Source of the DNA: a virus
Length of the DNA: 64,000 nucleotides
Direction: 5' to 3' (one strand)
IMG/VR virus record: IMGVR_UViG_3300047551_001153
Location: 13,600-77,599 of that record
The translations under genes and the position numbers were made by a program. The number at the start of each line of letters is the position of its first letter. Position 1 is the first letter of the stretch. This document shows, in pieces, positions 174-49,571 of this stretch. The notes below the pieces were generated by a model. The model searched no databases. It was not told the origin of the DNA and saw only the letters and a program-made list of their open reading frames with translations.

Positions 174-1001
174 CTATCCGTTCGGGTATTCCGTGATCGT
201 TATGGTAGCCTTGTCGCCTGTTCCGCCTGTTGGCCCCGGCCCTGTCACCGAAATAAAGTAACTTCCCGCCGTAACGCCTGCCTTTGGAACAGCATTGATA
301 TTGGCGTATGTCGGACCAGTCGCATTGAGCCACTTGGTATCGAATATATTGACATTCGATGCCGTAATAACACGCTGAGTTTTCACAGGTCCGTATAGAT
401 AAACTTTAGCGACAAATTGCATATTTGCTAAAGTAACTTTTCTGCTCGCATAATCACCATAACTTCCGTCATCACCATCGTTCAATGTGGCGGATGAAAA
501 TACGATTGGAATATCCACATCTTGATCCGTATTGTCAACCGCCTTTATGGTGAATGTATACTCTGGACCAAAGTAGGGCAAAATCTGCTCCATTATTTGG
601 AGAGCATCATCCATCGTCTTACTCATGACACTGACCGTAAATGTCAAGTTATAGGGAACACGCTCATATCTCTTGTACAACTTATCACGACTGGATGAAT
701 AGTAGGCCGCAGTCTGTTGAATGGTATTTAATTTGCGAGTTGAGTCATATTGAAAATTTGTTATCTCAAATGCGATGCGGGGAAGGTAGGTTTCCAATCG
801 AATTTGATTTTTGTCAAAATCATCACCGATGCGATCTAAGCGACGAAGAAATTTTTGCTGTGGGCCATATGCAACTGGAACCTTAAATCTCTCGATTTCG
901 ACCCCGTTTTCGTCCTTACGAGAGATGTATATCTCGTTGAATAGCGATGCAAACGCTATTACAACTTTTCTGATAGTTCCGTGATAGAAATATTCAAACA
1001 T
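174..1001 (-). CDS. gp15: Tail sheath stabilizer / tail terminator
   Basis: 'YFYHGTIRK..IAF..LFN', 'VPVAYGP.QKFL', 'LPRIAFEIT...YD..RK', 'QI.EQILPYF.P'; synteny gp13-14-15-16. Confidence 0.95.
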   Translation of the reverse strand: MFEYFYHGTIRKVVIAFASLFNEIYISRKDENGVEIERFKVPVAYGPQQKFLRRLDRIGDDFDKNQIRLETYLPRIAFEITNFQYDSTRKLNTIQQTAAYYSSSRDKLYKRYERVPYNLTFTVSVMSKTMDDALQIMEQILPYFGPEYTFTIKAVDNTDQDVDIPIVFSSATLNDGDDGSYGDYASRKVTLANMQFVAKVYLYGPVKTQRVITASNVNIFDTKWLNATGPTYANINAVPKAGVTAGSYFISVTGPGPTGGTGDKATITITEYPNG

Positions 1002-1004
1002 TTA

Positions 1005-1907
1005 TCAGGGGTCTCCAAACGGGTTCTTCTCACTGAAGTTGATGATCTGATCTGCTTCTGATTCAATTTCATCGTTCTTCGACTCGCTAAGTATTCCCAT
1101 CTTGTCATCCGCTGTAGATACACTTGCCCAAATGCTTTGGTCAGATTTAGTTATGTAGGAGGTCGCCGCTCCGCCTGTGACCCAAAGGCCAGATAGGTCG
1201 GCAACAGAAAGTACTTGCGGAGATTGTTTGTTGTCAACCGAGATGACTGTCCCGCTTGCGGTTTTCGTCCTTTGAGTCGCACCCGAAAGTCCTCCCGTAA
1301 ACGATCCATTCTCGTATTGATGTACGATATCACCCTTCGCAAAAGTTCCTGTTCCATATGTTTGCCCCAGAGTAACGAGCAACTTGTAGCCCGTCTCCTG
1401 ATTGATGACATCAATCTCGGGAACGCCCGTAGCGAACTTCTCCTCGCTGTACTGGAAGAGTTCACAGGTCAACTGGTACGAAAACAACTTGCCCAGTTGA
1501 TAGAAGGGGTTCTCATGCTCCACGAACTTGATCTCGAACAATCCTCTATTGAGGGGCAGGTACAACAGGTCTCCTTCCAAGGGTCTCTGTTTTCCTGTCT
1601 CTCGTGTAAACCGCTTGCGGGACACGGTGAACTTCACGCTGTCCCGAATCTCAAATCCGAACTTCGTAAATGTGTCGCCACCCTCGAACGCCGTGGTGGT
1701 GTCCATGTACATCTCGATCATCTTGAACTTGGTGAAACGGGAGTAGCGAGACTCACCGAAGAAATCGTCACGCTTCACCAACTCACGAGGAATGTAAAAC
1801 ATCTCCTGCCCGTGAATCTTGATGGCTTCAATCGTCAAGTCCTCCACCAGATTACGCTCTGGGAAGTAGGTCTTGTCATTCACCCGAATGTATGGATTGA
1901 GTGCCAA
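1005..1907 (-). CDS. gp14: Neck protein
   Basis: 'E.IKIHG...YIPR', 'KFG.EIRD', 'RP.EGDL.Y.PL...LFEIKFVEHE.PFYQLGK', C-terminal 'FSEKNPFG'. Confidence 0.95.
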   Translation of the reverse strand: MALNPYIRVNDKTYFPERNLVEDLTIEAIKIHGQEMFYIPRELVKRDDFFGESRYSRFTKFKMIEMYMDTTTAFEGGDTFTKFGFEIRDSVKFTVSRKRFTRETGKQRPLEGDLLYLPLNRGLFEIKFVEHENPFYQLGKLFSYQLTCELFQYSEEKFATGVPEIDVINQETGYKLLVTLGQTYGTGTFAKGDIVHQYENGSFTGGLSGATQRTKTASGTVISVDNKQSPQVLSVADLSGLWVTGGAATSYITKSDQSIWASVSTADDKMGILSESKNDEIESEADQIINFSEKNPFGDP

Positions 1908-1917
1908 ATGATTCTCC

Positions 1918-2727
1918 TTATCCCATCATGAAGTCGGCGGGAAGTTCATACTTGTTGATAATGTCTTTTTCAATTGTATCAATTTCAGCCACAGCCTCCG
2001 TGTACATAGTCTTGCCATCAAGAGTGATGTCGCCTGGTAGTTTGATTCCCGAATATTTTGACAGATTCTGACCCCACTGTCGCTTGAAAAGGGCAACAGC
2101 ATATTTCTTGAGAAGACGATCCTCATAAATTTCGGGGTAGATACGGGGGTCAAGAATACGATAGCATTCTATGATGAGATACATACCCGCCGAAACACTT
2201 GATGCCCATTGCATATCAATATAGAGCCTGTTTTGAACACGATTGAATCTGACGCTCTTGTCAGGACTCAAATATTGACGAAGCAGAGTAAGGTATTGCT
2301 GAGTGAGGTCATACTGAACAAGGTCAATGGTTCCGAAGGTATACAAGTCGTTCAATGCGTATTGATAGCGAATGTCAAACATACCGACTGATTGCTGAGT
2401 AAACGGGAAGATACGGGTCACGCTTGTGACCAAATCTTCCAAATAAACATTCTCACCGTCAACCGATGTGAACTGTCGCTCGGATGCGGAGAAACCTGTA
2501 TTGTCCGCCTTCATCTCAATGTAGCCGTTTGAGATGTCCTGAGCGGTGACCTGATACTTCAGGTAGACCTTTTCCACGCCGTCGAAGTGATATTCAGAGA
2601 AGAATCGCAGGGCATCATCAAGACGGTCTTCAACCTGTTCATCCGCTATGTTTACTTCGATTACGGGTTCGCCGAGTGCCCTTAGGCAGTACTGTCTCAG
2701 TCCTTCCCTTGACCTTATCTGCGCCAT
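1918..2727 (-). CDS. gp13: Neck protein
   Basis: 'YCLR.LG.PVIEVN...QVEDR.DDAL..F.EYHFDG', 'KRQWGQNL.KY.G..LPG'. Confidence 0.95.
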   Translation of the reverse strand: MAQIRSREGLRQYCLRALGEPVIEVNIADEQVEDRLDDALRFFSEYHFDGVEKVYLKYQVTAQDISNGYIEMKADNTGFSASERQFTSVDGENVYLEDLVTSVTRIFPFTQQSVGMFDIRYQYALNDLYTFGTIDLVQYDLTQQYLTLLRQYLSPDKSVRFNRVQNRLYIDMQWASSVSAGMYLIIECYRILDPRIYPEIYEDRLLKKYAVALFKRQWGQNLSKYSGIKLPGDITLDGKTMYTEAVAEIDTIEKDIINKYELPADFMMG

Positions 2728-3178
2728 CAGTGGTCTCCTTCAGGGGGTATTTATTCTTTATTTCAACCCTCTTGGCCTGAAGGTCCTCCACACCCGAATC
2801 TTTGGGATCTTTACCCTCAACAATGTGTTCCCAAAGGGCTACAATCAAGTCATTATATGATGGATATTCACCCATTCTGCATTCTTCGGGTCTGGCTATT
2901 TTACTGACCTCTTCATTGATCTCTTTGTCTTCTTTCTGCGTCAGCCGAATCAGGGTTGCGAAATCATTCTTTCTGGCGATATATCGGTCGCCATTCGGCC
3001 AGTTTGAGAGGGTGTTTGTGATACCATCAACACGAACTTTTAAAATTCCGTCTTTGTAGATAAGTGACTCCATACCCTTTGCGACTCCGTATTGCGGTTC
3101 CAATACGAGAAAGAGCGAAAGGGGGATTTCCAAATCATCAATATAAATCGTTTCGCCGATGTGTTTGAAAGTTGCCAT
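2639..3178 (-). CDS. Hypothetical fibre-associated protein (possible tail fibre assembly protein)
   Basis: Follows a fibre gene; has the 'EYPS..D..ALW...IKNKYP' pattern typical of such genes; 3' end overlaps gp13 by 89 nt. Confidence 0.55.
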   Translation of the reverse strand: MATFKHIGETIYIDDLEIPLSLFLVLEPQYGVAKGMESLIYKDGILKVRVDGITNTLSNWPNGDRYIARKNDFATLIRLTQKEDKEINEEVSKIARPEECRMGEYPSYNDLIVALWEHIVEGKDPKDSGVEDLQAKRVEIKNKYPLKETTDGADKVKGRTETVLPKGTRRTRNRSKHSG

Positions 3179-6634
<3,456 letters not shown>

Positions 6635-6682
6635 CTTTTATCCTCGAATGATAGGATTATTTAGACAGCATTACACATCCCC

Positions 6683-7846
6683 TTATGCCTTTTCAGACAA
6701 CAAAGCCTCTGAAGCAAACTTGAGGTTTGCCTCAATCCTATCTTTCTGATCGGGTGGGAACTTATTGTCCTTGAGGAGTTGAATGGAAGCCATTCGGGAT
6801 TCGTAGTAATGCTCTGTCCAGTAAGCCGAAATCGCAAATTCATCCAAAATAGCCCAATCGTAAATAGACTGTCCGACAAACAACGCACCTTCGGGGTATC
6901 TGATTTTTAGGGCTTGCTTGGCGAAGCGGTAAGCCTGATCCCAACGGCAGTAGTTTCGGCAGAGACGAGCCGCCGCCCAAAGGCTTTCGGCACGCCACGG
7001 GGCCACCTGATACGCTTGGAAGTACATACGGATGATCTCGTCAAACTCCTTCTTCAGGATTTCCATGATGCGACCCGCTTGGTAGTAGGAGTAGAACACT
7101 TCCTCGTTCCAACCGCCCAGTTCGGCTCGCTTGATATACGCATCAAGTGACTTCTCCCATTGCTGAGAATCACGATAGGACTGGGCGAGGTAGAAGTGAT
7201 AACGATTGAAGTCTTTCTCTTCGACCTTGCCAGAAGCAAGGGCGTTCTCAAAAGTCACGGCATCCTTGGCGTATTTGTCAGCCGACTTGGATCGGTTTCC
7301 GTCCTGAATAGGGGTATTGATGAACCCACGAGCGAAGTCACGAGTCTCGATGGGGTCGTGGCAGTCAACATATTCATGAAGAACACCACGATAGTAGAAC
7401 TTCTTGTGGTTAGAGGTCAACTGAGGGCGGTGATACTTAGTCTGGCCGTATACCGCAAAAACATTGTAAAGGTCGGCGGTGAGACTTTCCTTGAACTTAT
7501 CAGGATCAAATCCCGAATCATACACAAGAATTTCATCAGCATCAATCATCAGACTATAGTCATGTCCCGTCTTTTGGGCATAATTCAGAGCCTCAGAGCG
7601 ATTGGTTCCGAAGTCCGTCCAAGTGGACTGGTGAAGTTCTCCCTTGATGCCGTTACGGTCAAAGAAGTCCTTGATTTTTTGCTGAGTTCCGTCTGTCGAA
7701 CCCGTATCAACAATCACCCAATAATCAATAACTGGAAGAACGGATGAAAGACAACGCTCAATAACATGAGCCTCGTCCTTTACAATCATGCAGAGATTTA
7801 CCGTCTTTTTCTTTCCACTCACATTGATACTAAAATTATCATTCAT
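6683..7846 (-). CDS. Glycosyltransferase family 2 with C-terminal TPR repeats (SunS-like architecture)
   Basis: 'LCMIVKDEA..IERCL.SV', 'IVDTGSTDGT', 'W.DFG.NR..AL', 'IDADE' (DxD), 'Y.GVLHEY', TPR 'RY.FYLAQSYRD'. Start 7846 is preceded by GGAG; 7861 is an alternative. Confidence 0.92.
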   Translation of the reverse strand: MNDNFSINVSGKKKTVNLCMIVKDEAHVIERCLSSVLPVIDYWVIVDTGSTDGTQQKIKDFFDRNGIKGELHQSTWTDFGTNRSEALNYAQKTGHDYSLMIDADEILVYDSGFDPDKFKESLTADLYNVFAVYGQTKYHRPQLTSNHKKFYYRGVLHEYVDCHDPIETRDFARGFINTPIQDGNRSKSADKYAKDAVTFENALASGKVEEKDFNRYHFYLAQSYRDSQQWEKSLDAYIKRAELGGWNEEVFYSYYQAGRIMEILKKEFDEIIRMYFQAYQVAPWRAESLWAAARLCRNYCRWDQAYRFAKQALKIRYPEGALFVGQSIYDWAILDEFAISAYWTEHYYESRMASIQLLKDNKFPPDQKDRIEANLKFASEALLSEKA

Positions 7847-7922
7847 CGCAAATTTCTCCATTTTGTTGTGCGATTGTGCAGATGTATATAGGCGGGAAGA
7901 ATCAAATGACTTTCAATTATCT

Positions 7923-8288
7923 TCAGATTTTTGTAACCTCTGGATAAACCGTAATCATTCCCTGAACCACTCGATATACTTTTGTTGGTGGGATTCCATT
8001 TCCTGCACCATCTTTGGGGGTGATGTGCAATTCAACATCATAAAAATAGACTCCACCTTTCACTCCAGAAGATCCTGTAGCACTCAAAGAAACAAGAATC
8101 TCTCCTGTACTACCTGTAATTGTAGTATTGAAAGTAACTGCTGATGTAGAGGAATAATGCTTCCTCATCTGACAAAAAGCAGTCGCACCGCCTGTAATAG
8201 CAACGGCAAAACCATCGCTGTCTTTGCGAGTTGCAACGAAACTGAAGTCAGTTCCTTGGTCAAGATCGTAGTTGATGCTAATTGCCAT
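7923..8288 (-). CDS. Small virion structural protein (conserved in T4-like fibre regions)
   Basis: 'DQGTDF', 'QMRKHYSS', 'G.YFYDVE', 'RVVQG.ITV.PEVT'. Confidence 0.7.
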   Translation of the reverse strand: MAISINYDLDQGTDFSFVATRKDSDGFAVAITGGATAFCQMRKHYSSTSAVTFNTTITGSTGEILVSLSATGSSGVKGGVYFYDVELHITPKDGAGNGIPPTKVYRVVQGMITVYPEVTKI

Positions 8289-8303: not shown

Positions 8304-11300
8304 TTAACTGATTCTGCTTATTGTTACAGAGCAACCATTACTCCTAAATCTTCTATTTCCAGTACCACCTGCAATACCCGCAGGAACGCCGTTGGATGCT
8401 TCCCCACGAAGTGCGTAAAGAGTAAATACAACAGGATATCCTTGCCCTTGTAGGGGATCGTTGGCAAGACGAGGAAGAACTTGAATTTCCGTCATATCAA
8501 CCGAACTTGATCCTGGCAAATATCCATAACCTGCACCGCCGAGGTTTTCGTTCATAAATCTCAACTTGAGTTCACCTTGTCCGCTCAAAAGCCCCCCTTC
8601 AGCCGCAACCCATTGTAAATGCTTAACAACACAACTTCTGGCCGAACCACCACCTTGTTGTGGGAAATATTGAACATGGCCCTCCATTTTAATATTATAT
8701 GTCCCTGGATTAAGCGTTATTGTTTTTATAACATCAGCATCAGTTCCCGCATAGAACTGTGTAGTCATCTCTGCTGGGGGTGAACCAAACATATAAATAT
8801 TACTAATTCTCTGATCAACATAATCCTTGTTCGCCGCATCACATCCACTGGATGGTGCAGTCAGACCAGTGATTCTACCTCTGCATCCACCACGATTGTC
8901 AACAAATTCCAAAGTTGGGGCGGGGGTGGCTCTTTCATTTGTGACTGTATATGAACCATTCACATAACCCGCTGTATATCCGCCCAGAATCGTAACTTTA
9001 TTCAAAACTGGATCAACCGCAAAGGACGCACTGCCGTGTGCAGATCGGTTGGAAGATCGACCGTAGGCATCTCCAAATACTGTAAAGTCTCCGTTTACAA
9101 AAATCTCATGAGCAGAATCATAAGAATTTATGGATCTCGGATCAGCATTTGCAAAGGCACTAAGAATTGTGCGAGTGGGTCTTCCCTGTCCAAGCAAATC
9201 TTGATTTGTACTGATGTTGAATCCTCTAACTCCATTAACAGCAGGAATTCTGCCTGTCGGGTATAGAGGCGGTTCTGGAAGGATTGAACCCGTAATAGCG
9301 ACACCAATATCAGTAATTGCACGACTTATGCTGACTCTACCGCTTGAGGAAACTTCAAAATCCTCTGAGTTGAACATCGCCACACCAGTGACGGAGTATC
9401 CAGCCAAAGGTATGATTAGTCTCTTCTTGGCAATTTCCTGATCAACATACCACTTGTTTGTGGCCTTGTCATCTCTATCTGGTGCGGTAAGACCCTCGAT
9501 AATACCGATTGGATCACCGCTTACAAAATCTCCCTGTCTTGGATTGCGATTCAACAAAGAAATGGTGGGAGGCTCAAGGAGATTTATAGCAGAAATATCT
9601 GTATTTGCGGTTCCTCCACCAATAACTCTGAATCGAGAAAGTAGAGTATCAAATGTAAATGTTCCTCTATTATGTGCAGGAAGGATTACATTTCCGTCTG
9701 AACCCGTAAGGCCGTTTCCATAAATGCTCATGTCGCCACGGATGTGGACTTCCGTCTTTGCTCCAACTCCAGACGGTGTACTATCCGCAACAACGCTCAA
9801 TATCGTCTTTTCAGTTGGTGCTATGACTCCCGTTGCGGCGATGACATTAAACTGACCTGTTGGTCGGTTTCTACTTGCAGAAAATTCACCCGCAGGTAAG
9901 GCGTTGTAAATAAACTTGGACGCTGTGTCTGTGTAGAATTTATTTGTAGCGTATGAGTCTTGACCATCTTTAGGAGCGGTTAGACCAATTATTTGACCGA
10001 TTGGGAATGTATCTACATTCGGGGCTTGAATATTGGTAAATTTGAGTTTTGGAGGCTGAAGATTATTGACTGTAGAGCCGTGAATCGAAACTTGAGATAT
10101 CTTTGAATCAAGTTTGAATGCGACACCCGCATAGCCTCCACCCGTAAGGTTGTTTAGTGTAATTCCATCACTAAACACACTCAAATCACCATACATGAAA
10201 TTCTGCAAGACGCTATTAGATTCACTACCAATCAGACCTATATCCCAACGGCTGATAAACATTCCAGTAAATCCACCAGGTCTTCTCATTTGTGGATATG
10301 AGGATGGGATGTCGTGATAGACTCCCCAATCTCCATAGAATCCCGCCGAATATGGACTTACTTTGAAGTTTCCTTGGAGGGGATGGTAGCGATCATCATG
10401 ATTATGACCCGAAAGAATAAGAGCGGATAAACCACGCTTCGCACGGATAATCCAGTTAATCGTGGCATATGGTTGCATTACATCGAATGCTCTTCTGTTT
10501 ACACCACTGGCGAGTTGCGGTCCTAAATCGGTGTAGCGAACGGTTGACAGATTACTGGTTTCGCTGTTAGTAGCATTTCCGATTCCAACTATAGCACCAG
10601 ATCCGACAGAAACACCAGATGCTGTTCTGATTTCGTGTGAGTGGGCTGGGAGTTGATCAGCCGAAATGAACTTCAATCCTGCACCGCCGATGTCTCCCAA
10701 AGAAACATCCACACCAGCAAAAGACGCACCAGAATCCTTGGTTGAACCAATCAGGGTTCTGCTACGGAAATCTGGGAGGAAGAATATCGGATTACCCGTC
10801 TGACCCTGACCGGGAATGCGACCACGAAGTCTCAGAGTTCTTCCTGCGAGGGTTTGTGCGACATTGGAAACTACGATGCTGAATGAATTGACTGTTATGC
10901 GACCGTAGTTCACTCCTGCACCAACAGAGGCTACGATGGTGTTGGCATTGTAATAAATTCCGTTGACATTTACTTCAACCTGCAAGCAATCACCGACCTG
11001 AATATCATACGAATCGGTATTCGTAAGAACGATAGTCACGGGTCCAGTGGTGTAATCATTCGGAATTCGACCTTCAAGGTAGTAATTCTGACCAATGATC
11101 GCATACAACTCCGCCCATTCAGCCTTCAACAGTCTTGTACCGTCACACAACTTCCAACCATACGGTATGTCCGATATAGCACCAGAATATGGCATAACCA
11201 TACCGATTGGTATGACACCTGCCGAATCAACTATATCTGTCTCTTCACCAGAAACGATACCGAGGTAGTTTGCAACATATCCCGTATATGCGCTGAGAGC

Positions 11301-13160
11301 CAAAAGCATCGGCTTTCTAATTTGGCCAAGCGTGATTGGAAGAGGACCATCTGGATCTTTGATTAGAGACCCGTAATCATTTGAACTAAGATAATACACA
11401 TTTCCCGTGACAAGAGGGAACACATCCCAAATGTTAGATGAGGAATTTCCCGTAAGGCTGATGAATCCCTTGGTCACAACACATACTTCATTACCTGTTA
11501 CAGAACTAACAATACCAAGTGCTTCGGCTCTTTCGAATGTGTCCGCTCTTGCGAATGTAAGACTTCCATTGTCTGGATTCACTCGGACAACATCTCCGAT
11601 GACAAGACCGCTTGATGCCTGCGTAAAGCATTTCGTGATCGCTTCTGTTCCTTCGGGGAGCCAATCCCGTGCGATCTTTCCATTGCTCATTGAAATCGGA
11701 ATGGAGAATGGTGTGGCCCATGTTGTTCCATGTGCGCCGTCCAAGAAATCGCTATTGAATCCCTGTGCAAAAGTTGTGGTTGTGTTTGTGCCCTGTCCTG
11801 TCACAAATGCAGAACCAAATGTCTGACCAGACGCACCAGAAGCAATTTTGAAAAGAACCGATTCACTATCCGTAGTGCTTTTCTTGAAAATAAAGTTCAA
11901 AGGTTGGTGAGTAGCACCAGTTATTCCTCTATTATCGTGCTGAATTGCCCAATAACCATGGTGGCCATATTGTTGTTGACCAGTTGATCCACCGATTATG
12001 ATTTTCGGCTTTCCATCATCGAATCCCATGAACTGGAATGTGTTATTGACAGACGAGTCGCTATAACCATACGAGCGGAATTTCGATGCAATTATTGAAT
12101 TGCTACTTCCAGATACACCCAAATTGGATGTGGAAATGAAAGAGTTGTAAATGTCTTGATTGGGTCCCTCTTTGTAAACCCAAACTAACTCTTTGTCTCC
12201 AGACGCACCCTTAATCCTAATACCAGAAAAGTCTAAAAGATCATCGGTAAGGAACGCTGTCGTTGTAGTTGGGCCAGATACAACAGTAAAGTCCCACCTA
12301 CTACCCGGCCCATAAGGTCCAGTTACGCTCAGTTTTCCATCGGGTCTAATATCACCGACTCCGCCCTTCGTAAACTTGTGAAGTCGTATTTCGGTTTGAT
12401 CACCCGCAAAAGTAATCCCTTGAATTCTTGCGATTGATGAAGGAGTTGCAGTTCCACCCGATGTAGTATCATAATAGTAAAGAGTAAGACCGACTGCTGG
12501 AAAACCTAAATTATTTGGGGCAGTAATTCCAGTACAACCCACAGCAACGGTTTGTACATACGCCAACTCAATCAGAGAGTCCTCGACCGCCACCTCTCCT
12601 GAAGCAAGATTAGTTGCGTTTTCAACCGTCAAAGCACCGTTGATATACACATTACCATTAAACTCAAACCCATCTGGAAGGTAAACCTTCGGCGGAAGCA
12701 TTTGCTGTGCTTGTATTTTCTTCGGAGTTCCGCCGCCAACACCGAGAGTTCCATCGCTTACATCACTTACAATAAACCAGTCATTGAGTGCTGGGAAAGA
12801 TGAAGTTGGTCTTGTTCCAATAGCATCATCGTATCCGCTTCCTGCTTCCCAACCACTCAACCCCGTAACATCCAACATAATCGAGTTCAAATAATAGTTT
12901 GGTGTTGAGACACTTCCAAGTCCGATGCCTGGGCCAACCTGAGCCTTTATCGTAAGCAATCCACTATAGTTTCCATTCTGACAGGTGGACACACCAGTCA
13001 GACCACTATTAGTAAGTCCGACTTGGACATCGTAAATGTTGACCTTATTCAGGCTTGTAATGACTTCATTCGTTCTATCGTACCAAGTGTGAAAGGTATC
13101 GGAAAGAGCGAGAGGATTGATATTGATGAGGTCGCAGTTACCTGTGCAGGAACAAGACAT
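8304..13160 (-). CDS. Long tail fibre / baseplate-attached fibre with tail-collar domain
   Basis: N-terminal 'LSDTF..W...TNE', 'VEDSLIELA', collar 'PIG.VMPY.G..IP.GW.LCDG' and 'LPDFRSR', three 'I.GLTAP....A.NK.Y.D' repeats. Confidence 0.8.
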   Translation of the reverse strand: MSCSCTGNCDLININPLALSDTFHTWYDRTNEVITSLNKVNIYDVQVGLTNSGLTGVSTCQNGNYSGLLTIKAQVGPGIGLGSVSTPNYYLNSIMLDVTGLSGWEAGSGYDDAIGTRPTSSFPALNDWFIVSDVSDGTLGVGGGTPKKIQAQQMLPPKVYLPDGFEFNGNVYINGALTVENATNLASGEVAVEDSLIELAYVQTVAVGCTGITAPNNLGFPAVGLTLYYYDTTSGGTATPSSIARIQGITFAGDQTEIRLHKFTKGGVGDIRPDGKLSVTGPYGPGSRWDFTVVSGPTTTTAFLTDDLLDFSGIRIKGASGDKELVWVYKEGPNQDIYNSFISTSNLGVSGSSNSIIASKFRSYGYSDSSVNNTFQFMGFDDGKPKIIIGGSTGQQQYGHHGYWAIQHDNRGITGATHQPLNFIFKKSTTDSESVLFKIASGASGQTFGSAFVTGQGTNTTTTFAQGFNSDFLDGAHGTTWATPFSIPISMSNGKIARDWLPEGTEAITKCFTQASSGLVIGDVVRVNPDNGSLTFARADTFERAEALGIVSSVTGNEVCVVTKGFISLTGNSSSNIWDVFPLVTGNVYYLSSNDYGSLIKDPDGPLPITLGQIRKPMLLALSAYTGYVANYLGIVSGEETDIVDSAGVIPIGMVMPYSGAISDIPYGWKLCDGTRLLKAEWAELYAIIGQNYYLEGRIPNDYTTGPVTIVLTNTDSYDIQVGDCLQVEVNVNGIYYNANTIVASVGAGVNYGRITVNSFSIVVSNVAQTLAGRTLRLRGRIPGQGQTGNPIFFLPDFRSRTLIGSTKDSGASFAGVDVSLGDIGGAGLKFISADQLPAHSHEIRTASGVSVGSGAIVGIGNATNSETSNLSTVRYTDLGPQLASGVNRRAFDVMQPYATINWIIRAKRGLSALILSGHNHDDRYHPLQGNFKVSPYSAGFYGDWGVYHDIPSSYPQMRRPGGFTGMFISRWDIGLIGSESNSVLQNFMYGDLSVFSDGITLNNLTGGGYAGVAFKLDSKISQVSIHGSTVNNLQPPKLKFTNIQAPNVDTFPIGQIIGLTAPKDGQDSYATNKFYTDTASKFIYNALPAGEFSASRNRPTGQFNVIAATGVIAPTEKTILSVVADSTPSGVGAKTEVHIRGDMSIYGNGLTGSDGNVILPAHNRGTFTFDTLLSRFRVIGGGTANTDISAINLLEPPTISLLNRNPRQGDFVSGDPIGIIEGLTAPDRDDKATNKWYVDQEIAKKRLIIPLAGYSVTGVAMFNSEDFEVSSSGRVSISRAITDIGVAITGSILPEPPLYPTGRIPAVNGVRGFNISTNQDLLGQGRPTRTILSAFANADPRSINSYDSAHEIFVNGDFTVFGDAYGRSSNRSAHGSASFAVDPVLNKVTILGGYTAGYVNGSYTVTNERATPAPTLEFVDNRGGCRGRITGLTAPSSGCDAANKDYVDQRISNIYMFGSPPAEMTTQFYAGTDADVIKTITLNPGTYNIKMEGHVQYFPQQGGGSARSCVVKHLQWVAAEGGLLSGQGELKLRFMNENLGGAGYGYLPGSSSVDMTEIQVLPRLANDPLQGQGYPVVFTLYALRGEASNGVPAGIAGGTGNRRFRSNGCSVTISRIS

Positions 13161-13163
13161 GGA

Positions 13164-13367
13164 TTACTTCTTCCTTATTTCTTCTATTAGTAAACGGAGT
13201 TCGGCCAGTTCATTTTCGAGTTTATTTAGTCGTTCTCTATCCGATTCAATCTTTTTTCGCCTGTTTTCATATATGCGTATCGCATCTCTATCAACTGATA
13301 AAATCGCCCCAGTTGACTTATCACGAACGAGTCCAGAGTTGTTTTTTACTGGTATCTTTTCACTCAT
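13164..13367 (-). CDS. Small conserved coiled-coil protein following the VrlC-like gene
   Basis: 'LVRD..TGAI' plus C-terminal coiled coil; typical synteny. Confidence 0.7.
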   Translation of the reverse strand: MSEKIPVKNNSGLVRDKSTGAILSVDRDAIRIYENRRKKIESDRERLNKLENELAELRLLIEEIRKK

Positions 13368-20711: not shown

Positions 20712-20745
20712 GGGTTTCTACTATTTATAGTGGGTTATGTGACTA

Positions 20746-38300: not shown

Positions 38301-39169
38301 TATACTTTTGACAACCTGATCAAATCTTCGGTATGATTTCTCTTGCTTTCAATCGAATACCATTCTCTCGATTCTCCCTCATGGTCATACAATGGATTGA
38401 TGTCTGGACAAATCCAACCCGATTTTTCCAAAATTGTAGATACGCTGTCGGTGAAATTGGATAAATGCCAGTCCTTCAAATCCTGCGGAGCGTTTGCCCA
38501 ACTATACATTACCTCATCCAGATTTCCTATCTTGGGATGATTGTTGTCCCAATAGTTTGTGGACCCTACTCCTGTATTTGTTCCATAGCCACCCTCAGAC
38601 ATAACCTGAGAAAATTGCCAAGTGAAAAAATCGTTTGTTTCTGGTGCGTAAATGACTGTCTGAGGAATGTAGGGAAGTCCCGCAAAACTAAATTTGATTT
38701 TTGGGAATGTGTTGTTCAAATGTTCAAGCATCGCTGTGGCGGCTGAGACCGTCTGCGTAAATATAGTCGAACTCTTGTTTGATTGTCCGATAATACCATC
38801 ACCCGTGATGATATTCCATGAGGGAGATCCTCTAAAGTCCAACAATATTTTGCCTGATATCTCATTATCAAAAACATAATTTGTGGCAATATAATCAGAG
38901 AAGTCGGTAAGACCAGTTTCTTCCATTCCCGTCATACTTGGACTTTGCCAAAATACGGGGATATATGCAACCAAGTTATCAGTACCGCTTGAGGGAGTTC
39001 CGTCAGATGGTGTTTCCTGAACTCTGTAATCAAAAATATCGTTCAACTGATCGCCGTGTGTATTTCCATAATTCGGAAACGGATTGGGATATGTATTTCC
39101 ATTCTTTGCCGTATATTCTTCAGTAAAGGATGGGAGTGCATTGAATAATTTGAAATATTTTATTGGCAT
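35318..39169 (-). CDS. Large multidomain protein: possible TIM-barrel (glycoside hydrolase-like) N-domain, fibre-shared module, Cys-rich repeats
   Basis: ~1283-aa ORF; start MPIKYF 8 nt after ATAAATA; shares a ~90-aa module with the 8304-13160 fibre. Function is inferred. Confidence 0.6.
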   Translation of the reverse strand: MPIKYFKLFNALPSFTEEYTAKNGNTYPNPFPNYGNTHGDQLNDIFDYRVQETPSDGTPSSGTDNLVAYIPVFWQSPSMTGMEETGLTDFSDYIATNYVFDNEISGKILLDFRGSPSWNIITGDGIIGQSNKSSTIFTQTVSAATAMLEHLNNTFPKIKFSFAGLPYIPQTVIYAPETNDFFTWQFSQVMSEGGYGTNTGVGSTNYWDNNHPKIGNLDEVMYSWANAPQDLKDWHLSNFTDSVSTILEKSGWICPDINPLYDHEGESREWYSIESKRNHTEDLIRLSKVYADNDVINNGSERKEVLPLVNNMYRSRFIGFYDDPTGRFLRGKKIEDSRTSSIVSFLDGYTGNKSYATDKFISEAMFKGGMIEPAASPYLSNTPINTIYGCDGFVYLDQIPFALTAAFSSDQSSGNLEYLQRRSRNFIGRESFGTPPSENLPIWSNNSYAQYQPISFEYDQNKIVVLSVSGNGLTTDTFNEHKYVMVKGSGETANYEILRWKQPDQRLTGGTLTISPYTEGVVVGVTGNTGEGFPSVGLTFYYYNTTSGGFANPDNIGRIAGVSYGGETSYISLFKFKRDVNIRDQIILDGKISITGPIGPNSKWDFTIVRNPEFDLFYNPPVTGSSLTKLSVPRLLDIPTVFEEPPRITDEDISGLNVKIRTMTITGNDLFPTESELYKQHEFYSKTYASDYMRFLSESVPIGSSNQTLMFNSNGNCVGVSGAELVLSNRWNNSYQCVGQEDTPPTLSDFSPLADNCCDYVPVLCCLPSPEGTQCRGSCSIVQRAQCERMGGTRVSTCEECLADDTLAGSCYINNICSSVIVGKCDCIRAGGEWYADFGLRLRLRIEGASISDFFDDVKYIKVYDPSTQAQIIYTVHPTGYSPLPPRGSIQEGHLNVFVNGVIPTPGSVSSTNDVNVNDLFIISEVVKNDGTTIVVGVLYSIKITAVSDIYFDRCAQNCSDCGVIPHLECFSIDTILWESSDCTCQVGVPLKIYSHKIKRNMFNGCCSDQCLSSNGCVFRSEVGLGGPPVPSSRRPSAISYSGGRCGCSSRSNFIGDVSQTQVVRDRGAAGLVNVQETSFVSKCIEIPDDTITNLERSFGATACVCSNTGIPIPPLNCQYRRISLGNSPMPCRAQFGTDIPISNNISGPKYSMSLTTRTIPEFLLSSEIPNQDKGELMNIFFGVNEFPQGITTVADIERFFYTRNDYPIRPLAKVSQNWRYYNSLYNENNQQINRASFPEINRRMDIHTINKIKLMNGADQFFRNHRYVPTSAVDITYNILTR

Positions 39170-39183
39170 GGCTTGCTTATTTA

Positions 39184-39777
39184 TCAGATACAACCAGAAA
39201 GAATATCTTCAACTGATTTTGGCATGAATTTATGTGATTGCGCTCGGAAAGAGGTGGGCATTTTTCTCAAAACCGAACTCGCATATGGATTCTTGCGAAA
39301 GTTTCTTATTTTTTGCTTTTCCATAAAATGGTACATATAGACATTGCAGTTTGCTTCTTGGGCATACCTTTCCATGTCGAAGTCTATTCCATGTTCAATC
39401 ATGAGTGAAACGGTAATCTTTTCGCACTCCCGTTCCATGGCTCTATATGTCTCAAAGGCCCGTTTGACTTTTGCCGATGAACACTTCTTCCCTCTTGTCC
39501 AGTCCTCAACGACCTCGGCATAATTGTTCAGAGGGCCGAAGCATTTGCGGTACAGGGGAGATCCGACTTTCCATTGAATGAAGTGGGAAAACTCGTGCGC
39601 CAAAACTTCAATCCATCTTGGATTTTTTAATGCTACACATACCTCTTCATCGGTGAAATATCCAAGGCATTTATAACCATCACCAACTAACCAATTTACT
39701 TTTTTCAAACGAAGTCTTATTCCTTCTTCTTTCAAAGAGGATCTGACAAGAGAAATAAATTTCTTCTTATTGTTCAT
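39184..39777 (-). CDS. Hypothetical protein with HExxH zinc-metallopeptidase motif
   Basis: 'EVLAHEFSHFIQW' and a downstream 'MEREC'. Confidence 0.6.
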   Translation of the reverse strand: MNNKKKFISLVRSSLKEEGIRLRLKKVNWLVGDGYKCLGYFTDEEVCVALKNPRWIEVLAHEFSHFIQWKVGSPLYRKCFGPLNNYAEVVEDWTRGKKCSSAKVKRAFETYRAMERECEKITVSLMIEHGIDFDMERYAQEANCNVYMYHFMEKQKIRNFRKNPYASSVLRKMPTSFRAQSHKFMPKSVEDILSGCI

Positions 39778-44586: not shown

Positions 44587-44912
44587 GTGATTTCCACTCC
44601 AAAAGCGTTGAATGAAAGATTGGCGTTGCCTGCATACACCCGAATCTTGTCGGTTGTTGCAAGGCTGATGCCTATTGTGGCCACGAATGTGTCCATGCCG
44701 CCGATGGTAATATCGTCATACAAGTAGTCTTTGTTTGTAGTAGCCGCACCCGCTTGACTTACCGAGATGCGAAAGGTGGTGCTTGTGGTTCCACGATTGC
44801 ACACGACGATACTGCTCACAACCGCACTTGTGGCGGCGGGAACCGTATACAAGTCGGTTTCGGTTGTGGCGTTTGGAGCCGATTGACCTAAGATTTTTAC
44901 CGTGTCTGGCAT
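44583..44912 (-). CDS. Conserved small phage virion protein
   Basis: 'KILGQSAP.ATT.TDLYTVP..TSAVVS.I.VCN...SFNAFG.EI', a pattern familiar from fibre clusters of aquatic phages. Confidence 0.75.
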   Translation of the reverse strand: MPDTVKILGQSAPNATTETDLYTVPAATSAVVSSIVVCNRGTTSTTFRISVSQAGAATTNKDYLYDDITIGGMDTFVATIGISLATTDKIRVYAGNANLSFNAFGVEIT

Positions 44913-44915
44913 ATA

Positions 44916-45419
44916 TTACATTCCTGAAAACAAGAAAGGTCTTGATAGTGATGTTTGATATGAACCTGTGATGCTGACTGTTCCTGTTGCGCTGACCGAG
45001 AAGTGGTTCGGGTTGAATGACGCTACACCCGTCACGCCTGTGGTTGTTGCAAGGGGTGAAGAGCCACCACCACCTGCCGAGGATGAGATTGTGATTGTGC
45101 TTCCGACCGTGCTTACTGTAACATTTGAACCCTGAGCGATTGTTACTGGGCCAGTTATGCTGTTGACGGAGGTTACATAGTTGCTTGTAAGACTTACGGC
45201 TCCTGCGGCACTTACTACAAACTCATTACCGAACGAAGCAACACCCGTCACACTTGAAGTGGCAAGAGGCGGTGCGTATGTTACAGCACCCGTGGACCCA
45301 TTGAAACTATTGACAACATTGGACGACGAAACCGTGCCAACAATAGCACCGCTGGCGTTCACTACCGTTGTGCCGTTGACCGAGAATCCGTCCGTTGAGT
45401 CAAATTGTGTACCTGCCAT
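44916..45419 (-). CDS. Short fibre-like repeat protein
   Basis: 'VNSFNGSTGAV' and 'A.SSVTGVASF..F.VS..GAVS' repeats; ends 'PFLFSGM'. Confidence 0.7.
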   Translation of the reverse strand: MAGTQFDSTDGFSVNGTTVVNASGAIVGTVSSSNVVNSFNGSTGAVTYAPPLATSSVTGVASFGNEFVVSAAGAVSLTSNYVTSVNSITGPVTIAQGSNVTVSTVGSTITISSSAGGGGSSPLATTTGVTGVASFNPNHFSVSATGTVSITGSYQTSLSRPFLFSGM

Positions 45420-45438
45420 ATCTTACCTTATTTAGAAG

Positions 45439-46314
45439 TTATGCCCCAGCCCCACCGACAATTGGTGACAATACAGCATATACTCTGAATATCGTGCTTG
45501 TTGCTGATGCGGGAGTCGCTCTTAGTCTCCATTCGTCACTCGAATAATCCACCGTAAATGTAGCAACCGTATTACCAACCGATACGGTTCCATATTGAGT
45601 ATGCGTAACCGTTGAGCCGTCAGCAAGAGCGACAATCATGAATCGTGTTGAGAGAACACCCAAAGTTCCCGATACTAAAGTTCCCTGTTCCGCTTGAACT
45701 ATAATATCAGCAGAAGCATATCCTTCTATAAGACTCAATGCCCCGCTACTTGCAAGCGTAAACTGAGATGTGCTTGTAGTGGTGCTTGTGTATGTCTTGA
45801 CAACCTGACCGCTTGGAAGCCTGATTATGTCGGATACAGCATCACCAACTGTCAGGTTTCCGTTGATGGCGACATTTCCGTTGAAGGTCGCACCTTGAGC
45901 AACAAAGAGACTTTGAGTGGTAAGTCCGCTTGTGAAACTCGCTCGGCTGTTGAAGGTCGCACCCTGCGAAACTAACAGACTCTGGGTCGTGAGACCTGCG
46001 TTGAGCGTTTGAAGACCCGTGAAGGTGTTTGCCGAGTTGGTTCGGGCGACATTAGAGAGACTAACAGCACCCGACGAAACCGTGAAGTCGGACGAGTTGA
46101 ACGAGGCGACACCCGTGACGCTTGTGGTGGCGAGGGGTGGAGCATAAGTGACTGCACCCGTGGAACCGTTGAAACTGTTGACGATATTTGGTGCTGAAAT
46201 ATTTCCGCTGAATGTAGCACCCAGACCGACAAAACCTCTTGCCGAGTCTATGACAACCGAGTTGCCCGTTCCTACGGAAAATCCGCCTACTGAATTGTAT
46301 GGTTGGATAGACAT
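45439..46314 (-). CDS. Fibre-like protein
   Basis: Same repeats, plus tandem 'GLTTQSL.V.QGATFN' and a C-terminal 'TQYG.V....VATF' domain. Confidence 0.7.
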   Translation of the reverse strand: MSIQPYNSVGGFSVGTGNSVVIDSARGFVGLGATFSGNISAPNIVNSFNGSTGAVTYAPPLATTSVTGVASFNSSDFTVSSGAVSLSNVARTNSANTFTGLQTLNAGLTTQSLLVSQGATFNSRASFTSGLTTQSLFVAQGATFNGNVAINGNLTVGDAVSDIIRLPSGQVVKTYTSTTTSTSQFTLASSGALSLIEGYASADIIVQAEQGTLVSGTLGVLSTRFMIVALADGSTVTHTQYGTVSVGNTVATFTVDYSSDEWRLRATPASATSTIFRVYAVLSPIVGGAGA

Positions 46315-46325
46315 GGGTTATATCG

Positions 46326-48119
46326 TTAGACTATTTGATTGAGTCCCTTATAGATGATGGTATTGATGTCAAAATATGTTTTTGCCGATGAACTGGGTGT
46401 AACCACCAATCCCCAATAATCATTATAACCTGTCGCTTCAATAGCGAATGTTCCTAACTCCGTTCCTGTAGAAATGTTTGAATATTCCGTGAATTTTGCA
46501 CCAGAGCCGTTTTGATTGCCCAAAATCATGAATTTTCTTATGCTATAGTTAATTTGGTCATCTGTGTAGGCAAAAACCGTGACATCCGCCGCATGGTGAT
46601 ATGATATGGATACGATGGATGCGGTGATTCCGCCCGTTGAACCTGAATCTGGTGTAAACGAATATTCGTTTGGCTCCGCACCCTGAACCAATAAAACTTT
46701 TGTCGTTGAATTAGTTATGACTTGCTTTCCGAGGTTGTCGGATATTGTGGTCGCTCCGCAGTCTGGATAAGAAAGCAGTCTGTACTTGTTTGTTTGGTAC
46801 ATTACTTTCTGACATTCAATGTCGGAGCCATATACTGTTGGAGGTACAAATCCATCGGGCGGAACCGTAACATTATTTGGTCTAAACAGATTAACTTGAC
46901 CGACATTTGTTACAAAAAACTGAACAGGATTGTAACTGTTAACACCCGTAATTGAAGTGGTTCCAAGCGGAACAGCATTTTCAATGCGAGCCAGATTTCC
47001 AGTTTTGGTTATGACTATCCTATTTCCCGCTGTAACCGAATCACCTGTCACCTGATATGATGGAGCAAGAGAGACAGCACCAAGACCACTTACTGAAAAA
47101 TAAGTTGAATCGAAAGATGCTACGCCCGTCAAACTTTGAGTCGCAACAGATGGAGCATATACTACTGATCCTGTAAAACCGTTGAAACTCTTGACATAAT
47201 TTGCAGTAAGGCTCACACTGCCTAAATTACTGACCACAAACTCATCAGTAAAAGATGCTACACCCGTAACAGAACTTGTAGCCACAGGACTATTACTTCC
47301 AATTGTTACAGTATTACCCGATCTTGATACTGAAATCCTTGAACCCGCTACAACTGTATCACCTGTTACTTGATATGTCGATGCTAAAGAAACAGCACCC
47401 AAGCCACTAACGGTAAAGTATGATGAGTTAAAGGATGCTACACCTGTCAAACTTTGTGTGGCAACGGGTGTGGCATACAAAACAGATCCTGTAAGGCCAT
47501 TGAAACTCTTGACATGGTTGCTTGTTATACTTACTGCACCCAAAGCACTTACAATAAATTCGTTACCAAAAGATGCCACGCCTGTGACACTGGAGGAAGC
47601 GATAGGAATTACTGCGGGGAGGCTACTAAGAGTAACATTACCTGTCTGTCCATTTATTGATTTTACAATACCTGCTGTTAGACTTACAGCACCGAGTGCC
47701 GACACATTAAAATCAGTTGCATTAAAAGATGCCGCACCAGTAATACTGGATGATGCAATTGGAATATTGACAGAACCAGAACCAACAGGGACACCATTAG
47801 AATATATGGTTCCCTGAACATATAAATCTTCTTGAATTCCAACACCACCATAAACAACTAAAGCACCAGTTGATACACTATTTGACGGGGTGGTGTTTTC
47901 AATATTAACTACACCCTGAAATATATTTGTATCTGTAAATGTGTTGGGTAATGCGAGCAAAGCCGCACCAACTGGTGTTGAGCCTAATTCAACGATGCTT
48001 CCCGTGCTACCAACAAACAATCTTCCATCAGCCACATTTACAGCAAGTTCACCCAATGTCAAACCTGTGGGTTGAAAACCCGCAGTAAGACCACGCTTGA
48101 TTTTGATGATATTCGCCAT
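46326..48119 (-). CDS. Fibre protein with 'IKIKRG...GELAVN..DG.LFVG' N-terminus and repeated TGVASF modules
   Basis: About six 'A..S.TGVASF...F.VS.LGAVSL' modules. Confidence 0.75.
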   Translation of the reverse strand: MANIIKIKRGLTAGFQPTGLTLGELAVNVADGRLFVGSTGSIVELGSTPVGAALLALPNTFTDTNIFQGVVNIENTTPSNSVSTGALVVYGGVGIQEDLYVQGTIYSNGVPVGSGSVNIPIASSSITGAASFNATDFNVSALGAVSLTAGIVKSINGQTGNVTLSSLPAVIPIASSSVTGVASFGNEFIVSALGAVSITSNHVKSFNGLTGSVLYATPVATQSLTGVASFNSSYFTVSGLGAVSLASTYQVTGDTVVAGSRISVSRSGNTVTIGSNSPVATSSVTGVASFTDEFVVSNLGSVSLTANYVKSFNGFTGSVVYAPSVATQSLTGVASFDSTYFSVSGLGAVSLAPSYQVTGDSVTAGNRIVITKTGNLARIENAVPLGTTSITGVNSYNPVQFFVTNVGQVNLFRPNNVTVPPDGFVPPTVYGSDIECQKVMYQTNKYRLLSYPDCGATTISDNLGKQVITNSTTKVLLVQGAEPNEYSFTPDSGSTGGITASIVSISYHHAADVTVFAYTDDQINYSIRKFMILGNQNGSGAKFTEYSNISTGTELGTFAIEATGYNDYWGLVVTPSSSAKTYFDINTIIYKGLNQIV

Positions 48120-48278
48120 TTAGAAGTTTCCGCCGTCAATATTTATAGAGAAAAGGTCATCTATGCTGATGGTGGTTACGGGGTACACCTGCCAAGCCTC
48201 TCCGTCCCAACGCCAACTGGAGTAATCATATGTATAGATTTGATTCAACGAAGGATTTGCAGGAAATGCGAGTGCCAT
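48120..48278 (-). CDS. 52-aa virion peptide (below the ORF-track cutoff)
   Basis: MALAFPANPSLNQIYTYDYSSWRWDGEAWQVYPVTTISIDDLFSINIDGGNF*; SD AAGGA; 'FP.NP...Y.....W.WDG.AW' is a common fibre N-terminal motif. Confidence 0.8.
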   Translation of the reverse strand: MALAFPANPSLNQIYTYDYSSWRWDGEAWQVYPVTTISIDDLFSINIDGGNF

Positions 48279-48287
48279 GGTTGTTCC

Positions 48288-49571
48288 TTAGATGATATCA
48301 AACCAACTCAAATCAATAGAAATGTTTGTGCTTGCCGCAAAAGCCCGAGCCGCAATCGTAACCGTATCACTTTTTCCAGTTGCGCCTGTTATGCTCGTTT
48401 GAGTGCGTCCAAGTTGAAAGTTAAAGTCGTTGATGGATGATATGTCAAGCACACCGCTCTCATCAAAGAAGCCGCCAATAATATCGGTTCCTGTGACCTC
48501 AATGTGTGTGGGGGTAAAAGTATAATCAACATTTCCGTTTACATGGGTCGTCCATACCACATTTGGGCTACCTTGAGCCGACAAACCAGCATTAAGCAAC
48601 ACACGATATTCAACGGCTCGTGTGCCTGCGGCTTGATTGCTTGTGGTAACTAATCCGTTTAGATTGGAGGGAACCACCACACTATCCAAACGATTTTCAT
48701 TTAGTCGTATTGATACAAGCGGACGCAGGCGGTCGGTGGGTAAATTGGTTATAGGACTTCCGTCAGTACCAACATTCGCACGGCGACTGAAACCTTCGTA
48801 TCCACCTTCGCTAATTATGCTACTGCAAATCTGCTTCATGGTTGCGCCCGTGATACTCTGTCCGTTCAGTGTTCCAGTCACGCCAGTTCCGATGGACTCA
48901 ATCTCGTAACGAACAGGAAGCACCGCCGTGGTCATGTATGTGGTGGAATTGATGTTGTCGTTGTGAAATATGTGGGCAATCACAGGCTTGCCGTCTATGA
49001 AGAAACCCGTTCGCACATCGCCCACGCCAAGCCATTCAATGTCCGTCCAGAAAATGTTTGCGCCTGTGACACTCAACACACGACCGCTTGGTCCGTTGCC
49101 ATCGTATGTGTCATCGCTCCAACTTGATTGTGGAATGCGGCGAGTGGTGCTGTCCACGGTTCCAGTAACATTTGAGCGCAGAACCATGTATGCGGTCAAA
49201 CCATCTTGTTCAAAATACACGCCGTTTTTTTCGCCGAAGTATCCGACTCGTTGACGCAGATTTTGGTGCGGTTGGTTCATCACGAATGTGTTGAGACTCA
49301 ACAGCGACTTGCCGGGTTGATACGGAAACACACGCTTGGTTTCACGATACACTTTTGACCCCGTGGTCAAGCCGATGGTCATGTGAATCGTGCTTTCGTT
49401 GGGCATGTGATGGTGGGTTCCGCCAGTTGCGGTGATGGTACTCCACTTGTCGTTTTCTTGATAGCGGTGTTGCGAGTCGAACAGAGTGAAAGGATTGGCC
49501 ACACGCAGACGATTGAAAGCGTCAACCGTATCCTCTTTGAAACCCACCAAATCGTTGAACAAGTAACTCAT
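48288..49571 (-). CDS. Conserved phage virion protein (beta-sandwich / lectin-like candidate)
   Basis: 'DAF.RLRV.NPFTLFDS', 'YQPGKS', 'QRVGYF...NG.YFE', 'DIEWLGVG.VR.GF', 'YMTTA.LP.RYEI'. Confidence 0.75.
   Translation of the reverse strand: MSYLFNDLVGFKEDTVDAFNRLRVANPFTLFDSQHRYQENDKWSTITATGGTHHHMPNESTIHMTIGLTTGSKVYRETKRVFPYQPGKSLLSLNTFVMNQPHQNLRQRVGYFGEKNGVYFEQDGLTAYMVLRSNVTGTVDSTTRRIPQSSWSDDTYDGNGPSGRVLSVTGANIFWTDIEWLGVGDVRTGFFIDGKPVIAHIFHNDNINSTTYMTTAVLPVRYEIESIGTGVTGTLNGQSITGATMKQICSSIISEGGYEGFSRRANVGTDGSPITNLPTDRLRPLVSIRLNENRLDSVVVPSNLNGLVTTSNQAAGTRAVEYRVLLNAGLSAQGSPNVVWTTHVNGNVDYTFTPTHIEVTGTDIIGGFFDESGVLDISSINDFNFQLGRTQTSITGATGKSDTVTIAARAFAASTNISIDLSWFDII

Follow-up and report, generated by a model that had tools for sequence, protein, structure and literature searches.

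The closest described systems to the one considered here are bacterial enzymes that modify proteins or peptides. In Listeria monocytogenes, GmaR is an O-linked N-acetylglucosamine (O-GlcNAc) transferase that adds GlcNAc to flagellin, O-glycosylating the subunit of the filament while it is still in the cytoplasm and not yet assembled (PMC9638930), and the glycocin enzymes SunS and ThuS glycosylate the Cys of a Gly-Cys-Gly-Gly/Ser loop (PMC6405829). Among phages, Freeman et al. 2023, as cited in PMC12619734, describe a mycobacteriophage-encoded enzyme that puts glycans on the phage's own virion proteins, the sites being reported there on the C-termini of capsid and tail tube subunits. We have analysed a stretch of DNA of 64 kb, hereafter the window, taken from a 77.6-kb viral contig (IMG/VR record IMGVR_UViG_3300047551_001153, about 43% complete). 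It belongs to a T4-like myovirus whose fibre gene block holds a 392-residue glycosyltransferase (6683-7861, minus strand) and whose outer virion proteins are rich in a short motif best described as [G/S]-[L/V/I/A]-T-[G/A]. We propose, at a probability of about one half, that this motif is an O-glycosylation acceptor site, or sequon, for the phage's own enzyme. To our knowledge phage particles glycosylated by phage enzymes are few, and we know of no short acceptor motif defined for any of them.

By kinship of sequence and predicted fold, the enzyme is of the kind that glycosylates proteins or peptides. Its N-terminal part matches PF00535 at residues 24-111 (E 1.9e-8, above cut-off), and its best sequence match in the Protein Data Bank is GmaR (E 2.5e-8), with SunS and ThuS next. 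Its DADE stretch lines up with the one in GmaR, and D107 and D109 are invariant in 25 orthologues. An AlphaFold model made from 25 orthologues has a predicted local distance difference test score (pLDDT) of 91.8. Pfam matches to tetratricopeptide repeats (TPR) at 221-249 are weak and lie below cut-offs; in the model, residues 189-391 are helical hairpins throughout, with pLDDT >90, and Foldseek also matches the region to OGT and to designed TPR proteins. The top Foldseek matches are SunS (7msn) and ThuS (7msk), over the whole chain (388-396 columns, E 1.6e-13, TM 0.61), and the next fold families, RmlT, TarS and TarP, follow at E 4e-6 or worse, a gap of seven orders of magnitude. The features expected of a family 2 glycosyltransferase (GT2) fused to TPR, namely the acidic metal/nucleotide-sugar motif of the GT-A domain, a helical-repeat C-terminus in the same chain and a structural match along its whole length, are all found.

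The likeness to the described enzymes has its limits. GmaR has the same order of an N-terminal glycosyltransferase of about 180 residues and then TPR, and is the nearest in sequence, but it carries an additional antirepressor domain and serves a single substrate. SunS, ThuS and PalS, the glycocin enzymes, share the two-domain layout of GT2 and TPR-like repeats, the fold over the whole length and the use of peptide acceptors, yet they are only 14-16% identical to the window enzyme and modify one small secreted peptide, mostly on Cys, whereas we propose many large structural proteins modified on Thr. The glycine flanks of the Cys modified by SunS and ThuS resemble the small residues that surround the motif Thr here. 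On its scores the enzyme is a distant relative of SunS and not an equivalog, reaching 23 bits in the SunS equivalog model TIGR04195 of NCBIfam, for which the cut-off is 350, and the Pfam annotation of the window gave no glycocin precursor, transporter or thioredoxin gene near it.

The enzyme is better conserved than the fibres on either side of it. Orthologues occur in 77 IMG/VR contigs (L007-L083), amid structural genes and mostly adjoining fibre genes, and are 54-88% identical; in the comparison with the flanking fibres the enzyme stands at 55-88% and the fibres at 27-53%. The order of enzyme gene and then collagen-bearing fibre gene is kept in most of these loci; in about a dozen, a gene for a protein of 195-268 residues lies downstream of the enzyme gene in place of the collagen fibre. 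The wider family counts thousands of relatives in metagenomes.

A first-pass annotation of the window, made from the sequence alone, had claimed that one short motif, G-x-T-[GA] in its simplest form, recurs across unrelated proteins. Every string checked is present, among them AGVTAG and GPTGGTG in gp15, GGATA and TITGSTG in a 121-residue protein and GITAVTG and GSTGTTG in a VrlC-like protein, and the excess is real, although some of the proteins share modules. Against shuffles of whole proteins, the z scores of G-x-[TS]-[GA] lie at 5-8 for five large proteins of the outer virion. When all 8000 patterns of the form a-x-b-c are scanned without bias, G-x-T-G ranks second (49 vs 10.8 expected), after the collagen pattern G-x-Q-G, and is followed by G-x-T-A (28 vs 6.6) and S-x-T-G (34 vs 10.1). 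Under a stricter control, in which runs of at least four collagen triplets are masked and residues are shuffled only inside blocks of 15, the pooled count of G-x-[TS]-[GA] is 98 against 35.3 expected (z 10.9) and that of G-x-T-[GA] is 66 against 17.5. The related patterns G-T-x-G, G-[TS]-x-[GA], G-x-x-T-G, A-x-T-G and G-x-T-[not G/A] all lie at expectation, and Thr is preferred to Ser, the enrichment being about fourfold and twofold, respectively. As the excess persists under local shuffling, Gly and Thr content, whether global or local, does not explain it, and neither do the collagen tracts. Bias at the level of DNA is likewise rejected, since the codons at the motif positions are diverse and all synonymous codons are in use, which places the signal at the level of the protein.

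The remaining 27 proteins of the window, which belong to the inner baseplate, the hub and replication, hold 7 motifs where 7.6 are expected. The first-pass annotation had called the motif scarce in gp5, gp25, gp53, the hub and the replication enzymes; as a group the remaining proteins show neither excess nor depletion, and no avoidance of the motif is seen in cytoplasmic phage proteins. Shared ancestry was considered as the main source of the excess and is rejected for most matches in the window. The two long fibres at 3179-6634 and 8304-13160 have 441 aligned residues in common, and the proteins at 44916-48119 form one family; gp15, gp14, gp8, the gp7-like protein, VrlC and the sheath show no BLAST match among them or belong to distinct families, and all are enriched. 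About five matches in the window come from one repeat, SFNGxTGxVxY, and GLTAP also recurs, with recognisable repeats holding at most about one tenth of the matches. Collagen runs of at least four G-X-Y triplets amount to only 300 residues in three proteins, and more than 90% of the counted matches are isolated, outside such runs, and so cannot form a collagen helix.

The enriched proteins are all encoded on the minus strand. The tail sheath stabiliser gp15 (174-1001) matches Pfam T4-gp15_tss at residues 4-223 and has its motifs at residues 242, 256 and 259, all C-terminal, and the neck protein gp14 (1005-1907; Pfam T4_neck-protein) carries its own in the C-terminal third. Directly downstream of the enzyme gene, the tail fibre at 3179-6634 (Pfam Collar, Collagen and Gp10_C) holds 22 motifs against 5.2 expected (z 7.8); it has a collagen tract at residues 446-508, with Thr at 8 of its 21 Y positions, and dispersed motifs besides. 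Upstream of the enzyme gene lies the 121-residue LtfC-like protein (7923-8288), with 3 motifs against 0.5 and four motif columns that half or more of 24 orthologues share, and beyond it the long tail fibre of 1618 residues (8304-13160; 21 vs 6.6, z 5.8). The VrlC-like protein (DUF4815; 13364-18379), a baseplate or fibre protein, has 17 against 3.9. It is followed by two baseplate wedge proteins, an enlarged gp8-like protein (18369-20711; Pfam Phage-Gp8 at its C-terminus; 9 vs 1.8, z 5.6) and a gp7-like protein (20746-22914; Pfam Baseplate_wedge; 6 vs 1.0). A 431-residue protein (48288-49583) that has no Pfam match and is probably structural reaches 5 against 1.1 (z 4.0), and a 597-residue protein rich in Gly, Thr and Ser (46326-48119), which bears the SFNGxTGxVxY repeats and is kin to the proteins at 44916-46314, has 7 against 3.0. 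Enrichment is weak in a protein of 1291 residues (35318-39193; 6 vs 1.9, z 2.9), which has in common with the long fibre at 8304-13160 a module that is 51% identical over 99 residues.

The excess is also a property of the lineage. In open reading frames (ORFs) of at least 200 residues from the 77 enzyme-bearing loci there are 2003 motifs where 702 are expected (2.9-fold), and 871 of the reversed motif; a further 67 loci, which are more distant and show no enzyme within view, hold 684 against 433, with 513 of the reversed motif and a median ratio per locus of 1.3. Among close relatives the ratio of observed to expected is 5.2 for gp13, 5.2 for gp14, 7.1 for gp15 and 4.1 for the sheath, as against 1.0 for the terminase and 0 for the tube and portal, which have no motif. 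In a relative whose genome of 177 kb is 98% complete (G012), a scan of the whole genome flagged almost only structural proteins, among them the gp7-like protein (10 vs 2.7), the gp8-like protein (9 vs 1.7), VrlC, gp14, gp15, the major capsid protein (4 vs 0.9) and the orthologue of the 431-residue protein (7 vs 1.2). By these counts the excess is confined to the outer proteins of the virion, that is, the fibres, the VrlC-like protein, gp8, the gp7-like protein, gp13 to gp15 and the outer domains of the sheath. The G012 genome also encodes, at 165726-174224, a protein of 2832 residues built of dozens of tandem units, GGLSVTGGIAGTL, whose N-terminal part is homologous to 44916-45419 of the window, where only short members of its family are found. 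It resembles a long fibre of the beta-solenoid or beta-roll type and holds 80 motifs against 27.6 expected, with only 11 of the reversed motif; here, unlike in most of the window, shared homology does account for the recurrence.

This distribution departs from that reported for the mycobacteriophages, whose hosts and phage families are unrelated to the window lineage. Targeting of the type described in the source cited above, to the C-terminal tails of capsid and tube, is not what we find. The tail tube orthologues hold 5 motifs where 13.6 are expected, and the motif is short and internal, with fibres, baseplate periphery, neck and sheath as the proposed targets.

T4-like isolates that lack the enzyme provide the contrast. 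A protein search with the glycosyltransferase found no match in about 2500 T4-like records of the phage collection, T4, S-PM2, HTVC008M and Melnitz being without it. When [GS]xT[GA] is counted in the same way in the structural regions of these four phages, T4 has 22 against 24.6 expected (28 of the reversed motif), S-PM2 10 against 11.5 (15), HTVC008M 74 against 56.6 (65) and Melnitz 38 against 36.2 (36), whereas the window has 99 against 31.8, and 26 of the reversed motif. The ratios are 0.9-1.3 in the isolates and 3.1 in the window, so that orthologues from enzyme-less phages, for which the first-pass annotation had suggested that an equal density would speak against modification, do not have the same density, and by these comparisons the excess is specific to the lineage. 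Columns of VrlC that bear the motif here often retain the Thr in HTVC008M, Melnitz and S-PM2, without G/S at -2 or G/A at +1 (YLDGGTG in the lineage vs YTASGTD in an isolate; SGITA vs TPDIGT). As these homologues lack the motif flanks at the same columns, the fold does not require the motif.

Within the lineage the sites move while their density is kept. Every VrlC orthologue carries 11-21 motifs where about 4 would be expected; together they occupy 67 columns, and only 8 of these are common to half of the sequences. The motifs of gp15 orthologues occupy 23 columns, all from residue 197 to the C-terminal end of the alignment, and those of gp14 lie from residue 183 to the C-terminal end, again at changing positions. 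In the sheath about 70 columns are used in 36 sequences, nearly all inside residues 87-350 of T4 gp18, the outer domains in the structure of that protein. Where the flanks are kept, 88% of the residues between them at this position are Thr, and half of the substitutions are to Ser, as opposed to a quarter at other Thr columns. Shifting positions at a held density are what would be expected of a surface coat and not of a requirement of the fold.

We therefore favour a model in which the enzyme would be made late, together with the structural proteins, from inside the fibre gene block. Its N-terminal GT-A domain would draw a nucleotide sugar from the host pool and move the sugar onto the hydroxyl of a Thr where a beta-strand ends, a Thr that the small flanks, G or S at -2 and G or A at +1, would keep accessible, while the TPR domain may help in holding the protein substrates. 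The targets would be the outer virion: the fibres, the VrlC-like protein, gp8, the gp7-like protein, gp13 to gp15, the outer domains of the sheath and perhaps the capsid protein. The data show directly that the motif is enriched, that it has a direction, that its excess is restricted to outer proteins and to this lineage, and that the enzyme is kin to protein and peptide glycosyltransferases; we infer from this that these proteins are the substrates of the enzyme, the motif its site and Thr the residue modified. The properties looked for in a sequon, an occurrence above composition, a direction and a restriction to accessible proteins, are present in the counts per protein class and in the sheath mapping. 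That a shared modifying enzyme explains the motif better than fold does, as was first suggested from the window alone, appears reasonable in view of the composition controls, the orthologue comparison and the kind of enzyme involved, but is not settled, given the exceptions that follow and the turn-like character of the motif.

Several observations weigh against the motif being an acceptor site. The support throughout is of sequence statistics and homology, and the motif was chosen with the enzyme already in sight, so that their adjacency is not independent evidence. The score far under the SunS equivalog cut-off means that the acceptor cannot be inferred from SunS. Both the hydrophobic residue ahead of the Thr and the position after a strand would also suit a plain turn motif, and most of the 80 motifs in the 2832-residue protein of G012 are one tandem unit, GGLSVTGGIAGTL. 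The pairing of enzyme and motif also has exceptions. Contig G001 (63 kb, 35% complete) is enriched in the motif with no enzyme in view, and the large fibre-like proteins of contig G005 are not enriched, though that contig has a 41%-identical enzyme homologue. In the close relative L008, the orthologue of the long fibre at 8304-13160 is not enriched (4 vs 4.2), and in L057, an enzyme-bearing relative, a protein of 1239 residues with 19% Thr (321-4040) is depleted (7 vs 16.4). Of three megaphage homologues of the enzyme, two have no suggestive neighbour within 20 kb. The association is not clean: four complete isolates have neither enzyme nor excess and the enzyme-bearing loci have a 2.9-fold excess, but fragmentary contigs make exceptions in both directions; most of the IMG/VR contigs are only 14-50% complete, and the enzyme gene lies at different places in different sublineages.

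Some further features of these relatives may be recorded here. The L057 protein at 321-4040 has the reversed motif in excess (24), contrary to what its neighbours show. Enzyme homologues of 41-43% identity are present, at other loci, in two contigs from more distant relatives. That of G005 adjoins a gene for a collagen-like protein; the other (G002:C1:6120-7262, L162/L173; 43% identical) contains one in-frame TAG within the match, which could reflect a broken gene, a sequencing error or a recoded stop. In the unrelated jumbo phage Tunturi_5 (L167), a Tunturiibacter phage, a 37%-identical homologue lies 3.7 kb from the gene of a 1469-residue fibre in which 330 residues are (G-[PA]-T)n, that is, the motif in tandem; at 11995-21216 the homologue also stands beside four paralogous proteins of about 285 residues.

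The most serious rival explanation takes the motif to be a structural turn at the end of a strand that is never modified: the hydrophobic residue would pack inward, the Thr would cap the turn and the small residues would permit the bend, the motif spreading through a shared style of beta-rich repeats in outer domains and fibres and the enzyme acting elsewhere. Preference for hydrophobic residues alternates at the flanking positions -6, -4, +3 and +5, as it does in strands. The AlphaFold model of residues 1-800 of VrlC is of too low a quality to serve as a fold (mean pLDDT 44.6), and in its better parts the motifs sit in loops right after strands, directly so in five of five cases within segments of pLDDT >60. 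The tandem unit of the giant G012 protein contains the motif, as do the recurring SFNGxTGxVxY and GLTAP of the window, and retention of Thr or Ser would be expected equally of a turn capped by a side chain. A DNA methylase of the Rossmann type in G012 carries 2 motifs against 0.1 expected, which indicates that the motif can be purely structural. Against this, orthologues that share the fold do not have the motif at the corresponding columns, it is not in excess in the beta-rich fibres of T4, S-PM2, HTVC008M and Melnitz, and sites that shift between close relatives at a held density would be unusual for a requirement of the fold; the recognisable repeats account for too few of the window matches, and a conserved glycosyltransferase of the protein-modifying type within the fibre block is left unexplained. 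We consider an unmodified turn less likely than an acceptor site, though far from negligible. The two ideas are also compatible, as a strand-end Thr with small flanks would be at once a turn and an accessible acceptor.

An enzyme with a narrower role, glycosylating only the collagen-like G-x-T tract of the adjacent fibre as in the collagen-like exosporium proteins of Bacillus, with the dispersed motifs unrelated, appears improbable. GPT repeats of the BclA type are O-glycosylated. In repeats of this kind, known from phage fibres and bacterial collagen-like proteins, G-x-T-G is simply a triplet and the next Gly, and such tracts are present in the enzyme-adjacent fibre here and in Tunturi_5; the order of enzyme and collagen-bearing fibre in most related loci, the (G-[PA]-T)n fibre of Tunturi_5 and the collagen-like neighbour in G005 all fit this explanation. 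However, the share of Thr at the Y position differs widely among relatives, the extremes being 0 of 13 and 18 of 23, which makes the tract no constant target, the dozen or so enzyme loci without an adjacent collagen fibre do not conform, and the dispersed, lineage-specific excess would go unexplained. At least as doubtful is a motif with some other purpose, be it some other kind of modification, a signal read by a fibre chaperone or attachment to a component of the host surface, combined with an enzyme that acts on DNA or the host envelope. DNA and host surface polysaccharide are common substrates of phage glycosyltransferases (PMC12619734), a point from the literature to which our own results add no direct support, but the fold relatives of the enzyme are peptide and protein glycosyltransferases and not enzymes acting on DNA or lipid carriers, and its placement and conservation within the fibre block fit poorly. 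We give next to no weight to an artefact of composition, collagen tracts, DNA-level bias or post hoc choice of the motif. Gly, Thr and Ser are abundant in these proteins, and 8 matches stem from the collagen tract of a single fibre, yet the excess survives masking and local shuffling, the motif stands second in a scan that did not presuppose it, its codons are diverse, and the result is replicated in the 77 further loci and a near-complete relative, none of which the first-pass annotation had drawn upon.

The remaining genes of the window place it among the T4-like phages. Nearly all genes lie on the minus strand, and the structural set comprises gp15, gp14, gp13, the two long fibres around the glycosyltransferase and the 121-residue protein, the VrlC-like protein, gp8, the gp7-like wedge protein, gp6, gp25, PAAR, gp5 and gp53; replication and nucleotide-metabolism genes are carried as well. 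A nucleotide search of the window against phage isolates gave no match, and the nearest isolate is Pelagibacter phage HTVC008M, with a gp6 that is 38% identical. In a search of sequencing runs, metagenomes of several studies contain the stretch at shares of at least 0.4, their sources being freshwater, lagoon, reservoir and wastewater, the label freshwater being used here as context only. Sheath, tube, portal and terminase genes lie directly upstream of the window. T4-like phages usually have the major capsid gene beyond the scaffold gene; the source contig does not contain it. Past the scaffold gene, at 1-2975 of the genome (L166), there are instead a plus-strand frame of 501 residues and a frame of 489 residues, neither with a Pfam match. 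The window encodes a second glycosyltransferase (56335-57042, minus strand; PF03407 Nucleotid_trans, E 3.4e-12) between uvsY and uvsW. It was considered as a conserved partner of the first and rejected, as a search of five large related contigs, of which two are 93-98% complete, did not turn it up; lacking conservation in the lineage, it is probably not part of the core system but a recent or strain-specific addition.

Taken to the level of the lineage, we tentatively suggest, with less assurance than for the acceptor site itself, that a widespread freshwater T4-like lineage may coat the whole exterior of its virion with O-linked sugar by means of one SunS/GmaR-like enzyme and the sequon [G/S]-hydrophobic-T-[G/A]. 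The coat would cover the fibres, the baseplate rim, the neck, the sheath and perhaps the capsid, with sites that turn over fast while their density is held; we propose a likeness here to the glycan shields of animal viruses, in which sites are likewise gained and lost with density maintained. Should the motif prove purely structural, it would still be an unusual lineage-wide habit of sequence in beta-rich virion proteins. If the proposal is true, a bacteriophage particle would have, for the first time as far as we know, a glycosylation code that is defined by sequence, differing from the mycobacteriophage case in the type of enzyme and in the targets and adding a defined motif. It would also offer a compact pair of enzyme and tag for protein decoration, and glycosylated phages and their target proteins would become predictable from metagenome sequence alone. 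For an aquatic phage, such a sugar coat may serve as protection from proteases or grazers, alter adsorption or mask the particle from host defences.

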